Shown here one piece after another: positions 6,326-64,000 of a stretch of 64,000 nt of DNA. The stretch comes from an uncultured Gammaproteobacteria bacterium. Lineage in GTDB: Bacteria > Patescibacteriota > Microgenomatia > JAMCZE01. The notes below the pieces were generated by a model that did no database searches, was not told the origin of the DNA, and was given only the letters and a program-made list of their open reading frames with translations. Location: positions 19,260 through 83,259 of the forward strand of contig CAZSSJ010000002.1 in NCBI GenBank assembly GCA_964609775.1. Reading direction: 5' to 3'. How positions within the stretch are numbered: the stretch's first letter is position 1; each line of letters opens with the position of its first letter. A program made the translations under genes and the position numbers.

Positions 6326-8616
6326 TTCTGGTTTTCCTGTGCCTGTTAGCGGCCAATGTTGCAATTTTCTGGCAGTTCTATTTTCGTGGACTTTTGCCCT
6401 TTCCCGGCGATCTACTGGTGTCATTTTTCTTTCCCTGGAACTCTGGCGGCTTTGCCAATTTTGATCAGTGGACCACTCACAAAGAAGTCATCGCCGCCGA
6501 TGTCATTCGGCAAATGTATCCTTGGAAAGCCCTCCTAGTCAACGCCGTAAAGAACGGCACCTGGCCTCTGTGGAACCCCTACAATTTTTCTGGAACTCCG
6601 CTTCTGGCTAATCTTCAGTCATCCGTTTTCTTTCCGGCCAATGTTGTTTTTCTCTTTTTGCCCCGGCTTGTTTCCTGGATCAGTCTCGTCATTTTTCTCC
6701 CCCTCATTTTTTCCATTTTTTGCTATCTCTTTTTACGCTCTTTAAACATTAGCCGGCTCGCCAGTCTCCTCGGAGCAATCATCCTGTCAAATATTTCTTA
6801 TTTGCTCGTCTGGTCAGAGCAATTGGTCTTTATTCAAAGTGTTCTTTTCCTGCCACTCTCCCTGTTGCTAATTAATTATTATTCAGTTTCAAAAAAACCA
6901 CTTCTTCTCCTCCTTTTGCCCCTAACCTTATCTTTTGCCGTTTTTGGCGGTCACATCCAAACAGTTGTCTATGTTTGTGTTGTGGTAACTTTATATGCCC
7001 TTTTCCGCCGCCTGCCAATCAAATACCTTTTTATCATCGCTCTTTCGACCATAGGCCTGTCATCACTACAACTTCTTCCTTCTCTCGAACTGTATCTCTA
7101 TTCAGCTCGCGAGGGAAATGCCTCTGCCCAGTTGTTTCTTGAATCTGTCCTTCCGATCCAAAATCTCGCCACCATTCTTGCTCCGGATTTCTTCGGCAAC
7201 CCCGCCACCGGCAATTTTTTCGGCTCTGACTATGGCAATAATCAGGTCTATTTCGGAGTATTGGCAGCATTTTTTTCCGTCGTTGGACTTTATTACGGAC
7301 TGAAGGGAAAAAAGAGTTTGACGCTTTTTTTTGCTCTCGTTGGCCTAGGAGGTCTGGTGTTTTCTCTAGATCCTTTTGCTCGCTTGTTTCTTGTTTTTAA
7401 AATCCCGGTTCTTTCTTCAGCGGTCGCTGCCCGAGGAATTTTCATTTTTCAATTTTGTTTTGCCGTCGTGGCCGCTTTGGGAATTGATCAATTTCTGGCA
7501 AACACAAGGAAACGAGCAATAATTACTATTTTTTTCCTCTTTCTCGGCTTCTACCTGCTCCTATATTTTTCCACCAAGTTAATTCCCAATCACGCCACTA
7601 TTGCTCAAAAGAACCTAGTTCTGCCCTTGCTGGTCCTACTTTCCACTGGTGTGACCGCCTTTCTCTCCCGTTTTCGAAGGCAAGCAGCCGTTGTTCTCAT
7701 TCTAATTGCCACTTTGGAATATGCTTATTTTTTCAACAAATTTGCCCCCTTCGCCAGGAGAGAGTTTGTCTTTCCTGGGCATCCGGTTTTCAATTTTTTG
7801 ACGACGCGGGCGGAAGTTGACCGGTTTTACGGCTTCGGGACAGCCTATGTTGACAATAATTTTGCCTCCTACTACCGCGTCTTTTCCGCCGAGGGCTATG
7901 ACTCGCTATATATCAAGCGCTATGGTGAACTTCTCGCCTCCACCAAAAACGGCCAACTTCCCCCAGATGTTCCCCGTTCTGACGCCCTCTTTACAAGTCA
8001 AGACAACGTCTTCCGTAACCGGCTCTTTGATCTTTTAGGCGTCAAGTATATCCTTGATAAAAATGATAATCCCCAGTCAAATTGGGAACCGGAGAATGAC
8101 AAATTCCCCGAGGAGCGCTATAAGCTTGTCTGGCAGAAACTGAAATGGAAAGCCTATGAGAGAAAAACCGCCTTGCCTCGGGTATTTCTCGCCGATTCAT
8201 TCCTCGTTACCAATTCCGACCAGCTGATATTGTCAAAAATGTTTGACCCCCGATTCGATCTGGCAGCCACCGTGATCCTTGAAAAGAACCCCCCTTGGGA
8301 ACTTGCTCCGGGAGGGAAAAGTGAGGCAAAAATGAGCAACTACCGGGAAAACATGGTTGTCATTGAGACACAAGCTGACAAACCCAAAGCACTTTTCTTA
8401 TCAGATACCTACTACCCCGGTTGGAAAGCTACTCTTGATGGAAAACCAATAGATATCTATCGAGCCGATTATATTTTTAGATCCGTCATGGTTCCGTCTG
8501 GAAAACATACTGTCATTTTTAACTACGATCCTGAAACTTTTAAATTTGGGCTTGCCCTTTCAGGATTATCAGCCGCTCTTCTCTTGATAACCATCTTGCG
8601 AAAATCGCATCCATGA
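6292..8616 (+). CDS. YfhO-family membrane protein (paralog 3)
   Basis: The N-terminal 50 aa are almost identical to paralog 2: LLPFPGDLLVSFFFPWNSGGFANFDQWTTHKE. C-terminal YYPGWKATLDGKPIDIYRADYIFRSVMVPSGKHTV. Confidence 0.8.
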   Translation: MAKIFATNKKLILVFLCLLAANVAIFWQFYFRGLLPFPGDLLVSFFFPWNSGGFANFDQWTTHKEVIAADVIRQMYPWKALLVNAVKNGTWPLWNPYNFSGTPLLANLQSSVFFPANVVFLFLPRLVSWISLVIFLPLIFSIFCYLFLRSLNISRLASLLGAIILSNISYLLVWSEQLVFIQSVLFLPLSLLLINYYSVSKKPLLLLLLPLTLSFAVFGGHIQTVVYVCVVVTLYALFRRLPIKYLFIIALSTIGLSSLQLLPSLELYLYSAREGNASAQLFLESVLPIQNLATILAPDFFGNPATGNFFGSDYGNNQVYFGVLAAFFSVVGLYYGLKGKKSLTLFFALVGLGGLVFSLDPFARLFLVFKIPVLSSAVAARGIFIFQFCFAVVAALGIDQFLANTRKRAIITIFFLFLGFYLLLYFSTKLIPNHATIAQKNLVLPLLVLLSTGVTAFLSRFRRQAAVVLILIATLEYAYFFNKFAPFARREFVFPGHPVFNFLTTRAEVDRFYGFGTAYVDNNFASYYRVFSAEGYDSLYIKRYGELLASTKNGQLPPDVPRSDALFTSQDNVFRNRLFDLLGVKYILDKNDNPQSNWEPENDKFPEERYKLVWQKLKWKAYERKTALPRVFLADSFLVTNSDQLILSKMFDPRFDLAATVILEKNPPWELAPGGKSEAKMSNYRENMVVIETQADKPKALFLSDTYYPGWKATLDGKPIDIYRADYIFRSVMVPSGKHTVIFNYDPETFKFGLALSGLSAALLLITILRKSHP

Positions 8617-61011: not shown

Positions 61012-62154
61012 ATGCCGTGCATATTAAAAAAACTGGCAAGGAAAAGTCCGGGTATAGTCACTTTTACTCATAACGAAGCCCTATATGGTTTACCGGCGAG
61101 ATCGCGTAAGGTTAAAAACTACATTACCCAAACCTCTGGGAAAAGATGGATTTATGGCGTTCATCTTCAGGGCAGCTTGAAACATCTGAAGGAGTGGCCA
61201 CTTGAGCCCTGGCAAGCATTCATTTCTTGGTCGAACCCAAAGTCCCCATTTCTGTCAAATGTCCCCACCGAAAAACTAATTGATATTAATCACATTAATC
61301 TTCTACCCGAATTTGGGTTTACCCCACGCCCTAAGATTTGGGACATCATCATTATTTCTCGGCCATCAAAAATTAAAAGAATTCAGGAATCAGTTTTCAT
61401 CATTAAAAAATTAATGTTGAAAAGACCTGAGTTAAAAACAATTTTTATCGTTCCAACTCCCAGTCGGCAAGCCAAAGACATTGACCGGAGTTTTTTTGAA
61501 TTGCCCAAAAGGTTATTTTCTACTAAAGAGATGAAAAATACATCATTTATTGTTTCACCGACTGAAAGTTTCGGAAATTTTCCCGTTTCCTCAGAACTAA
61601 TATCAAAATTGATTTCACAGTCAAAATTTTTACTGTTAACTTCTCACCGTGAAGGTGGGCCACGGGCGATTGGCGAAGCGCTTCTGGCGGGAACACCCTG
61701 CATTATATCTAAAAATTTAGACACGGGAATCGTGGGCGTTTTTGACAATAAAAATACTCTCACAATCGACGACAATATCGATCTAGCCACGCAGCAAATT
61801 AATCAAGGCTTGCAAAATTACTCTTCATTTAAAATTGATGATAAAAAAATCTGCCGCTTTTTCAGTGAGCGGCATAATAAGCCAATATTTAAAGCCAAAT
61901 TATCAAAACTACTAACACAAATGAGTTACCAGGTGGCGGGAGAATGGTATCTTGAAGATTTGTCTTTTCGGCTCTGCGGTCACGGTCGAAAATTCAGTTT
62001 TCAATCCCTGGACGACGACCGACAATTCTTTTTTTGGTTTGATAAGATTACTTCAGTAAATCCATATGATGAAGATGGTCTGATTTATCACCCCGAATCA
62101 TTATCAGACTATGCTCTTCGGAAACTAAAAAGGTTATGGCAGACAAGACGCTGA
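61012..62154 (+). CDS. GT4-like (GT-B fold) glycosyltransferase, divergent
   Basis: C-terminal SHREGGPRAIGEALLAGTPCIISKNLDTGIV aligns with the GT4 E-x7-E region. The N-terminal half is unassigned. Confidence 0.6.
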   Translation: MPCILKKLARKSPGIVTFTHNEALYGLPARSRKVKNYITQTSGKRWIYGVHLQGSLKHLKEWPLEPWQAFISWSNPKSPFLSNVPTEKLIDINHINLLPEFGFTPRPKIWDIIIISRPSKIKRIQESVFIIKKLMLKRPELKTIFIVPTPSRQAKDIDRSFFELPKRLFSTKEMKNTSFIVSPTESFGNFPVSSELISKLISQSKFLLLTSHREGGPRAIGEALLAGTPCIISKNLDTGIVGVFDNKNTLTIDDNIDLATQQINQGLQNYSSFKIDDKKICRFFSERHNKPIFKAKLSKLLTQMSYQVAGEWYLEDLSFRLCGHGRKFSFQSLDDDRQFFFWFDKITSVNPYDEDGLIYHPESLSDYALRKLKRLWQTRR

Positions 62155-63015
62155 TATTTTTTCTCCTCATGATTCCTGGCACCCTGCTCCTCGGAATCAA
62201 TGACGTTCTTGCTCGAAAGATTCTTCGTTCCGGGGTGGCCGACAGTCTTCTTGTGGGGCTAATGTTCTTGGCCTCGGGAGTTCTTGGCCTTGCCCTTTTA
62301 TCTCTTTTTGGTCTTCCGGAAATAAAAAATGGCTTTTGGCTGGTTTTTTCGGGAACTGTAATTCTCAATGTTTTTGGTCAGGTGGCTTGGTACCGAGCCT
62401 TCAAACTCGAGAGGTATCTTTACTTTCTCCACTGTGCCTCTTGACCCCGCCCCTCGTCATTTTCACCGGCTCCTCCTTCTTCACGAACAGCCAACACTTG
62501 CCGGTGTCAGCGGGATCCTGATTACCACACTGGGTTTGTTAGTCCTCCTCCAGCCGGATCTTTTATCAACAGAGCTAAAAATAAAAGCTGTTGTCTTGAG
62601 AAAAGGCGTGGTCTACGGCATTATCGGCGCCATCCTATTTTCCTTTTCTTTTCCCTTGGACAAAATCACCATATCAAAACCTTCAGGTCTCGTTTTGGCA
62701 GCTGGAATGAGTACGGCCGTCGGTCTAACGACCCTTCTCTACAGCCTTGTGACGAGCAGTGGACAGCGTGCTAATCCTCATCTTCTCATCAAAGAAAAAA
62801 CCCTCATATTTCTAATCATCACTATCTTTGCTGGCACCGTGCTCGTTTCCCAAGCCCTCCTCTACGCTCCCGTGGCCAACGCCGCCAGTGTTAAAAGGCT
62901 CTGGTCCCTCTGGGCTGTGATCTTGGGCGGGAAGTTTCTCCACGAGAGTCACATCAAAGAAAAAATTATTGCCACAGTCATTATGGCCTTGGGGATTTTT
63001 CTGCTCTCAGTTTAG
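62136..63015 (+). pseudogene. EamA/DMT-family transporter disrupted by two -1 frameshifts (near 62425 and 62480)
   Basis: Frame A (62136..62444) encodes TM1-3, ending ...GQVAWYRAFKLE. Frame C encodes VSLLSPLCLLTPPLVIFTGSSFF (TM4). Frame B (62368..63015) continues with HEQPTLAGVSGILITTLGLLVLL and a second EamA half. Together the three frames rebuild a canonical 10-TM EamA protein. Confidence 0.5.
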
Positions 63016-63588
63016 GGGTAGGGAAGTTGGGTCAACTCTTTTAGCCTGAAGTAATAAATTACAAAAATCTCGTACCGCGCCGCTACCAGCCTCCCGTGAT
63101 GCTGTGAAATGGGCGATGTCCTTGATAATCTTCTCCGCTCCGGCAGGGCAAGCCGCCAGACCGACCTTTTTCATCACTGGGTAATCGCCCAAATCATCGC
63201 CCATAAACGCACATTCATCCCAAGCAAGACCCAGTTTTTTCAGCCAATTTCCAACGACCTTGACTTTCCCTTCTCCCGCCGCCTGGACAAAAACGTCTAC
63301 TTTAGGCCACTTGCCGGATTTAGCCGAAGGCAAACTGTTTAATTTTTCAGCGAATTTTGGCAAGAAATTGTCGCCCGTTGCAGTGACAAAGCAGATTCTC
63401 AGGCCTATCCCGCGCAGAAGCGAAATCCCCTGGCCATCAACATGGCTTCTAACGCGTTGGACTTCACCCTTTTCGGAGTCAAACCAGACGGTCGCCGAAA
63501 AAAGGACCCCGAGCGACCCAAAGCCGGCCGCTTTAATTTTTTTAGCTTGAGCTAGAACCTTACTCTTTTGTGTCTTTCTTTTTACCAT
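63007..63588 (-). CDS. KdsC/YrbI-family HAD (IIIA) sugar-phosphate phosphatase homolog with non-canonical motif I
   Basis: GDDLGDYPVMKKVGLAACPAGA and GSGAVRDFCNLLL match KdsC (GDDLIDWPVMEKVGL / GGRGAVREVCDLLL). Motif III Lys is present. The nucleophile motif DVDGVL is replaced by GSLGVL. Confidence 0.7.
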   Translation of the reverse strand: MVKRKTQKSKVLAQAKKIKAAGFGSLGVLFSATVWFDSEKGEVQRVRSHVDGQGISLLRGIGLRICFVTATGDNFLPKFAEKLNSLPSAKSGKWPKVDVFVQAAGEGKVKVVGNWLKKLGLAWDECAFMGDDLGDYPVMKKVGLAACPAGAEKIIKDIAHFTASREAGSGAVRDFCNLLLQAKRVDPTSLPLN

Positions 63589-64000
63589 TGTTAAGTTGTT
63601 TTTTTAAAAAGCTTTCGGCTAAAGACCAGTCGGCCGGTTCGTCAATGTCAATCGCCTTTTCTTCCGGCATGACATAGACACCAATTTTACCACCCAAGCG
63701 ATTTTTATAAGTCTCTAAGACTTCTTTCTTCGTCAGGTAAAACGCCCCATTTTCATTGACCACGCCTTCAAATTCCTGTCGTCTGGGACGATGCAAGTAG
63801 TCATAGTTTAGCGGCTTGCCGTCTAGTGTCCAGTAGAACTTTTTGTACAGTATTCCAGTTAGCATTGAATCCCAGCCATTTTCAAAGAACAATTCAATCG
63901 CCTGGTCCAAATCCTCGCTGGTCGTAAATGGCGATGTGGCCTGAATCAGATTTAAAACGTTAAAATCCTTTATGAGTGTCGCAAAATGGAGCATTACCGA
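63560..64000 (-). CDS. acylneuraminate / nonulosonate cytidylyltransferase family (NeuA/KdsB-like), C-terminal part (N-terminus beyond window end)
   Basis: ATSPFTTSEDLDQAI...NYDYLHRPRRQEFEGVVNENGAFYLTKKEVL...GGKIGVYVMPEEKAIDIDEPADWSLAE fits the CTP_transf_3 C-terminal pattern. Overlaps the KdsC-like gene by 29 nt. Confidence 0.7.
   Translation of the reverse strand, partial: SVMLHFATLIKDFNVLNLIQATSPFTTSEDLDQAIELFFENGWDSMLTGILYKKFYWTLDGKPLNYDYLHRPRRQEFEGVVNENGAFYLTKKEVLETYKNRLGGKIGVYVMPEEKAIDIDEPADWSLAESFLKKQLNNGKKKDTKE

Follow-up and report, generated by a model that had tools for sequence, protein, structure and literature searches.

Can a KdsC-like protein that has lost the haloacid dehalogenase (HAD) superfamily's aspartate nucleophile still act as a phosphatase and, if it cannot, what is it kept for? 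The question is posed by a gene near the end of a 64,000-nucleotide stretch of DNA (contig CAZSSJ010000002.1, positions 19,260 to 83,259; this whole stretch is called the window here), which encodes a 193-residue protein, the query, next to a NeuA-like cytidylyltransferase. The original prediction, made from the letters alone, had taken the two genes for a nonulosonate-type activation pair whose phosphatase lacks its catalytic DxD, and had offered a pseudo-phosphatase, an unusual mechanism or a sequence error as the reason. The query is real and reproducible, and it is the extreme member of a clade of degenerate KdsC-like proteins from bacteria of the candidate phyla radiation (CPR). The public record of the exact protein is that of a hypothetical protein from a groundwater bacterium, Candidatus Yanofskybacteria (CPR/Patescibacteria lineage). 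The gene and its motifs are situated as follows.

63007..63588, minus strand: KdsC/YrbI-fold HAD protein of 193 residues, candidate pseudo-phosphatase (open reading frame, family and PDB matches, AlphaFold2 model, Foldseek).
63505..63522, minus strand: motif I, F23-G24-S25-L26-G27-V28 in place of F-D-x-D-G-V (sequence and alignments).
63382..63384, minus strand: motif II, Thr69, kept (alignment, FVTATG against the family VSGE).
63265..63267, minus strand: motif III, Lys108, kept (alignments).
63184..63201, minus strand: motif IV, G130-D131-D132-L-G-D135, kept (alignments).
63298-63339, minus strand: CPR-family insert of about 13 residues, residues 84-97 of the query (conserved N84, L86, P87, S88, G92 and W94).

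The query matches the NCBIfam models of KDN 9-phosphate phosphatase (7.3e-20), KdsC (2.3e-18) and TIGR01670 (7.8e-17), although at scores below the curated cut-offs (71.7 against 180 bits for NF058599, 66.5 against 208 for NF007019 and 61.6 against 106.95 for TIGR01670, respectively). Its best PDB sequence match is YrbI (3mn1; HMMER, 1.3e-18). The AlphaFold2 model, with a predicted local distance difference test score of 96.6 and a predicted template modelling (TM) score of 0.91, is a cap-less Rossmannoid fold with a beta-hairpin flap that can be superimposed onto the solved KdsC structures. The top Foldseek matches are YrbI/KdsC, the best having TM-scores of 0.84 (query length) and 0.91 (target length) and a root-mean-square deviation of 1.5 Å; the entries 3nrj, 3n1u, 3i6b and 2r8e lie within 0.80-0.84, 0.89-0.91 and 1.3-1.8 Å. 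GDDLGDYPVM and GAVRDFCNLLL, the two segments from which the family had initially been recognized, are both found in the query, and the assignment of the gene product to the KdsC family is borne out by the NCBIfam and PDB matches. The insert has no counterpart in canonical KdsC and is kept in both the intact and the degenerate CPR KdsC-like proteins.

Upon alignment to 3mn1 by HMMER, the query segment IKAAGFGSLGVL lies opposite IKLAVFDVDGVL, which puts Gly24 (codon GGG, 63517-63519) in the place of the nucleophilic Asp and Leu26 (codon CTC, 63511-63513) in that of Asp+2. The first of these aspartates is described as the nucleophile and the second as the general acid/base, and an Asp nucleophile is used by all characterized HAD phosphotransferases (PMC8069645). 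Both are absent from the query, as had been predicted, and its motif I has no DxD. The remaining elements of competent HAD phosphatases, namely the Ser/Thr of motif II, the Lys of motif III and the acidic residues of motif IV, are present, with G130, D131, D132 and D135 being invariant across 64 sequences. Its sequence no longer allows the canonical HAD reaction, for which both the Asp nucleophile and the Asp+2 general acid/base are required, and we infer that phosphatase activity is absent.

That an artefact of sequencing, assembly or reading frame masks a true DxD is next to impossible. At least 24 contigs carry the exact query protein, and they come from ENA, JGI, Logan and NCBI. The DNA of the gene is identical in five fetched assemblies, and a sixth, GCA_001794335.1, has one synonymous change and differing flanks; at the motif I codons, which the original prediction had singled out for checking, none of the six encodes DxD. 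GGG and CTC are each two positions away from GAY, so that several point substitutions would be needed to restore D-x-D, and related degenerate motifs are present in sister lineages. A frameshift was also ruled out, since DxD is encoded in no frame of 63505-63522 when the sequence is read by eye. The suggestion of a sequence error is thus refuted.

The loss is not confined to the query. In two homologue searches 162 close relatives from CPR bacteria were retrieved; 149 of them (about 92%) keep DxD, typically as FDGDGVFFSGR. With the loci described below included, thirteen relatives have Asp+2 replaced by L, F, V, I, Y or G. The minority motifs in which the nucleophile is kept and Asp+2 is replaced are FDGLG, FDSLG, FDGFG, FDSVG, FDSGG, FDSYG and FDSIG. 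Scans of the loci added, among the matches listed, FDSIG (L018), FDSVG (L053c), FPSIG (L024), FSGIG (L058) and LGGVG (L071/L072). The nucleophile is thus also gone in L024 (P), L058 (S) and L071 (G), besides the query (G).

The order of these losses was followed on a bootstrapped neighbour-joining distance tree built without the motif I columns, in which deep resolution is weak. L024 groups with the Asp-retaining L053c in 95% of the replicates and L058 with L071 in 100%, whereas the query joins L058/L071 in only 1%. By this pattern the nucleophile has been lost independently at least twice, and probably three times, in each case after Asp+2. Monophyly of all degenerate members is unsupported (8% bootstrap), and four intact proteins nest among them in the tree. 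The loss originally seen in the query is real, yet it is no singleton but the last stage of a degeneration of motif I that runs through the clade. About nine further KdsC-like proteins without the nucleophile are found among representatives of 50%-identity clusters, showing that pseudo-phosphatases are recurrent in the KdsC-like family. Their motif I sequences include CGVDG, FGAKG, INVGG, LGVDG, ASVSG, LGGVG, TGVNG and FGGGG, and motif IV is often degenerate too.

The constraint on the degenerate clade was compared with that on size-matched samples drawn from 121 intact relatives. The changes in the clade are concentrated in the motif I loop and the next hairpin, where D26 is replaced by a hydrophobic residue, G32 by E, A or S, R33 by T or V, K45 by R (in 10 of 13 members) and E46 by T, V or M; in addition, L139 is replaced by M in 12 of 13. 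Twenty-seven positions are invariant in the degenerate and intact sets together: G27, V28, F30, E42, R47, S48, D51, G52, G54, S56, R59, N84, W115, G130, D132, D135, G143, P148, E152, K156, R165, G168, G170, A171, R173, D174 and L180. Of 68 columns that are each at least 90% conserved in the intact proteins, the query keeps 54 and deviates at 14, compared with 2.1 ± 2.2 deviating columns for intact proteins, 4-17 for those lacking Asp+2 and 11-19 for those lacking the nucleophile. By these counts the query is under looser constraint than its intact relatives, yet it is clearly not evolving freely. The substitutions K45R, L139M, G32E/A/S and E46T form a new clade consensus and are not random, so that constraint persists.

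According to the general HAD architecture, the motif I loop and the flap line the active site. The clustering of the clade substitutions there (positions 26, 32, 33, 45 and 46) could mean that the site has been remodelled, and T69, K108 and D131/D132/D135, which a pure scaffold would not need, are kept. Such a non-canonical enzyme might use direct attack by Mg-activated water via the motif IV aspartates and K108, or might catalyze a reaction on the nonulosonate other than dephosphorylation. However, this is improbable given the Asp nucleophile common to all characterized HAD phosphotransferases (PMC8069645). Position 24 is G, S or P depending on the lineage, arguing against a defined new catalytic residue, and in the sister proteins without the nucleophile K108 has become R and the leading Asp of motif IV has become N or H.

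The number of deviating columns raises the possibility that the gene is a decaying relic. The phosphatase would have become needless, either because a canonical NeuB forms no phosphorylated intermediate or because another phosphatase is present, and the gene would be drifting without function under relaxed selection. Signs of damage are found nearby and in a relative. In the nucleophile-less L071/L072 homologue (7893-8566, motif I LGGVG) the frame shifts by +2 at a TGTGTG repeat that immediately precedes motif IV, identically in two contigs, and the gene that converges on the query gene is itself frameshifted.

62136..63015, plus strand: convergent gene for an EamA/DMT transporter, frameshifted twice near 62410-62480 (frames 0 to 2 to 1; Pfam EamA, frame analysis).

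When the three EamA frames are joined, they form a normal EamA repeat, and the same position is occupied by an intact EamA gene in L007 (305 residues; the locus of P0002) and in L014 (336 residues). The excess of deviating columns and both sets of frameshifts all fit ongoing decay. Against this, the query reading frame is intact over 193 codons, the 54 conserved columns that are kept include motifs II-IV, and the AlphaFold2 model is very confident. Between strains the gene shows no differences other than synonymous ones, and its 29-nucleotide overlap with the cytidylyltransferase gene is kept. Moreover, degenerate motifs persist in proteins from no fewer than 13 divergent lineages (44-55% identity), along with conserved substitutions specific to the clade. 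Decay is the main rival of the reading favoured below, if a rather unlikely one.

The surroundings of the query gene were viewed by extending the contig about 10 kb past the window end, as locus L001.

63560..64000, minus strand: 3' part of a NeuA/PseF-like cytidylyltransferase gene, which runs past the window end (CTP_transf_3; full length 233 residues).
63560..63588, minus strand: overlap of the cytidylyltransferase stop with the KdsC-like start, 29 nucleotides (open reading frame coordinates).
L001 8387-9229, minus strand: PhyH-family (Fe/2-oxoglutarate dioxygenase-like) gene, between the NeuB fusion and the cytidylyltransferase.
L001 6478-8370, minus strand: NeuB-SAF-AP_endonuc_2 fusion of 630 residues, 1.6 kb past the window end (domain matches).
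L001 5046-6419: conserved protein of about 455 residues, with a counterpart in intact loci that have a short NeuB.
L001 3411-4448, plus strand: FkbO/Hyg5-like chorismatase-RidA fusion, beside the glycan locus.
L001 324-1154, minus strand: DAHP-synthase-like gene (DAHP_synth_1), about 9 kb away.

The cytidylyltransferase fragment within the window scores only 16.9 bits with CTP_transf_3, below the cut-off of 22.6, but the full 233-residue protein (L001:9328-10029) scores 87.5 bits and passes the Pfam gathering threshold. The pairing of a NeuA-like cytidylyltransferase with a KdsC-family protein, as originally proposed, is thereby confirmed. The best NCBIfam match of the enzyme is PseF (1.5e-33; 116.3 bits against a cut-off of 205.7), and the KdsB models, whose cut-offs are 155 or more, give at most 60 bits. 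Since the equivalog cut-offs of PseF, NeuA and KdsB are not reached, the activated sugar cannot be named from the models. The 29-nucleotide overlap might couple the translation of the two genes; in relatives, short overlaps or gaps of 0-26 nucleotides recur between them.

The original prediction had proposed looking downstream for a NeuB- or KdsA-like synthase, and the fusion protein of L001 is a synthase of the NeuB family, matching NeuB_NnaB at 300.6 bits (cut-off 399.65). Its architecture recurs in L012, L018, L027, L058 and L071. The sole PDB sequence match of its AP_endonuc_2 domain, a xylose-isomerase-like TIM barrel, is the uncharacterized MJ1311. The product of the PhyH-family gene may modify the nonulosonate. 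On the window side the locus encodes glycosyltransferases, methyltransferases, a PIG-L deacetylase and a Wzm/Wzt-type ABC exporter. A Kdo pathway was considered and rejected: the DAHP_synth_1 gene scores 104.7 bits as DAHP synthase against 26 as Kdo8P synthase, and its neighbour is the FkbO-like chorismatase. The gene is thus closer to DAHP synthase and provides no evidence for Kdo. Of the sialic acid, KDN or Kdo-like sugar first envisaged on the glycan, what stands is a nonulosonate activation module inside a glycan locus. Searching the window and its 10-kb extension by tblastn with His_Phos_1 and with an intact KdsC-like paralogue revealed no second phosphatase.

Eleven degenerate loci were compared with 36 intact ones after removal of duplicates by protein sequence; both sets are small samples taken from the matches listed and not a census. 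Three kinds of genes set these loci apart.

L011 10645-11277; L013 9345-9956; L014 9331-9984; L024 12169-12780: His_Phos_1 genes in nonulosonate loci.
L014 11760-12350 (minus strand); L024 11448-12104; L053 117-770 and 777-1430: divergent KdsC-like subfamily in which DxD is intact and motif I is followed by an extra insert.
L009 8634-9488; L010 8572-9426; also L017, L025 and others: short NeuB (283-285 residues, no SAF), directly downstream of intact KdsC-like genes.

A His_Phos_1 gene is present in four of the 11 degenerate loci and in none of the 36 intact ones (Fisher p=0.002); among the matches listed, such genes occur in nonulosonate loci solely where motif I of the KdsC-like protein is degenerate. 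This suggests that the phosphatase step has been replaced non-orthologously by His_Phos_1 in these loci. A second, deeply divergent KdsC-like paralogue that is intact is present in three of the 11 degenerate loci. This intact-DxD subfamily co-occurs with the degenerate paralogue, and L053 has three KdsC-like genes in tandem. NeuB is directly adjacent in 14 intact loci but in none of the degenerate ones (Fisher p=0.02). The adjacent NeuB of intact loci is often short, with 284 residues and no SAF domain, whereas the NeuB-SAF-AP_endonuc_2 fusion is found in five degenerate loci, that of the query included. The short-NeuB loci often contain B12-binding radical SAM and SPASM radical SAM genes, together with the conserved protein of about 455 residues. 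A cytidylyltransferase gene lies within 1 kb in nine of the 11 degenerate loci, often overlapping or abutting, and is common at intact loci too. Natural fusions of KdsC-like proteins also occur, with CTP_transf_3 (P0164, P0221, P0228 and P0286), with NeuB-SAF (P0251) and with SIS-CBS (P0270), and DxD is intact in all of them; P0164 is a CPR-type cytidylyltransferase::KdsC-like fusion of 425 residues.

Gene order, the fusions found elsewhere and a vertebrate precedent lead us to infer, at roughly an even chance, that the query partners the adjacent CMP-nonulosonate synthetase without being a catalyst itself, serving as a scaffold or a ligand-binding subunit. Its role would most likely be that of an oligomerization platform for the NeuA/PseF-like enzyme, or perhaps of a sugar-acid-binding subunit. 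The ancestral CPR arrangement often couples an intact KdsC-like phosphatase directly to a NeuB-type synthase, whose product it presumably dephosphorylates. In the degenerate clade, dephosphorylation may have passed to the His_Phos_1 enzyme or to the second KdsC-like paralogue; alternatively, it may be needless in genomes such as that of the query, whose NeuB is the full-length SAF/AP_endonuc_2 fusion. Asp+2 was lost first and the nucleophile later and repeatedly, while the fold, the locus and the signature residues were maintained. This order is expected if catalysis had already been given up while the protein was still needed. Among the explanations first offered, the pseudo-phosphatase is the best supported, and an unusual mechanism is unlikely.

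Several observations weigh against a partner of the synthetase. Both a complex with the cytidylyltransferase and the binding of a ligand are conjectural. The adjacency of the two genes is common for intact members too and is by itself no sign of a new role, and every bacterial cytidylyltransferase::HAD fusion found has an intact DxD. The excess of deviating columns in nucleophile-less members and the frameshifts in the L071/L072 homologue and in the neighbouring EamA gene, described above, count here as well, as does the fact that K108 and the acidic residues of motif IV have been kept. A more specific proposal, which would account for these residues, is that the degenerate clade is a dedicated non-catalytic subunit that binds the nonulosonate or its phosphate, with T69, K108 and GDDxxD kept so that what NeuB makes is bound and passed on to the cytidylyltransferase, or else for sensing it and regulating the enzyme. 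It would then be a stand-alone pseudoenzyme derived from a pathway phosphatase after the chemistry had been outsourced to a histidine phosphatase. This is speculative, and we consider it doubtful.

Whichever role is correct, the natural intermediates survive: intact members, members lacking only Asp+2 and members lacking both aspartates. Replacement phosphatases are seen in sister loci as well. The CPR series is therefore a tractable comparative system for asking what nucleophile-less KdsC modules do. Public records label these proteins "HAD hydrolase" or "KDO 8-P phosphatase", and some of them cannot be canonical phosphatases. The loci also document nonulosonate-type glycan genes in Patescibacteria; among the papers listed by a literature search, none connects nonulosonic acids with this group. 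Literature searches on HAD pseudophosphatases and on BT1713 or KDN 9-phosphate likewise gave nothing among the papers available.

Among known systems, the KdsC/YrbI Kdo 8-phosphate phosphatase and the BT1713 KDN 9-phosphate phosphatase, both cap-less C0 HAD proteins, have the fold, motifs II-IV and the C-terminal GGxGAxR(D/E) in common with the query. The query differs from them in lacking the motif I DxD, in having the CPR insert and in falling below all curated NCBIfam cut-offs. The intact CPR KdsC-like family (for example P0003, P0010 and P0019) is closer, with 50-59% identity to the query and the same RSHxDGQGISLLR, LNSLPSVKxGxW and C-terminus. Its loci resemble that of the query in being of the nonulosonate type with CTP_transf_3 and NeuB. 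However, its members have FDGDGVFFSGR and often lie directly upstream of the 284-residue NeuB without SAF, whereas the query clade has the substitutions at D26 (to hydrophobic), G32 (E/A/S), K45 (R), E46 (T/V) and L139 (M) and, among the matches listed, is never directly adjacent to NeuB. The delta subunit of phenylphosphate carboxylase is reportedly a KdsC-family subunit of a larger enzyme complex, and it is thought to be catalytic. Its model (TIGR02726) matches the query weakly (1.9e-10; 41 bits against a cut-off of 282), and the pathway is unrelated.

The closest parallel is the C-terminal domain of vertebrate CMAS. This domain is reported to lack phosphatase activity and to act as a platform for oligomerization (PMC8636478, citing Oschlies et al. 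2009), and the role of the phosphatase-like domain is still called unclear in the same source. In the mouse domain (3ewi), which is KdsC-like, motif I reads CNIDG and motif IV GNEVSD. Both it and the query are KdsC-like HAD folds coupled to a CMP-sialic acid synthetase of the CTP_transf_3 type, and both have lost the nucleophilic Asp (CNIDG and FGSLG, respectively). However, the CMAS module is fused to its synthetase, while the query is encoded by a separate gene in a different frame with the 29-nucleotide overlap. CMAS has kept Asp+2 but has a degenerate motif IV, whereas the query has lost both aspartates and has an intact motif IV. In sequence the query resembles 3ewi weakly, and only over its C-terminal half (query residues 96-178, 4e-11). 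As DxD is kept by the close CPR relatives, the degeneration is likely to have arisen within CPR bacteria, independently of CMAS. By this analogy the known kind would be the CMAS-type pseudo-phosphatase module, and what appears to be new is its bacterial parallel encoded by a separate gene.

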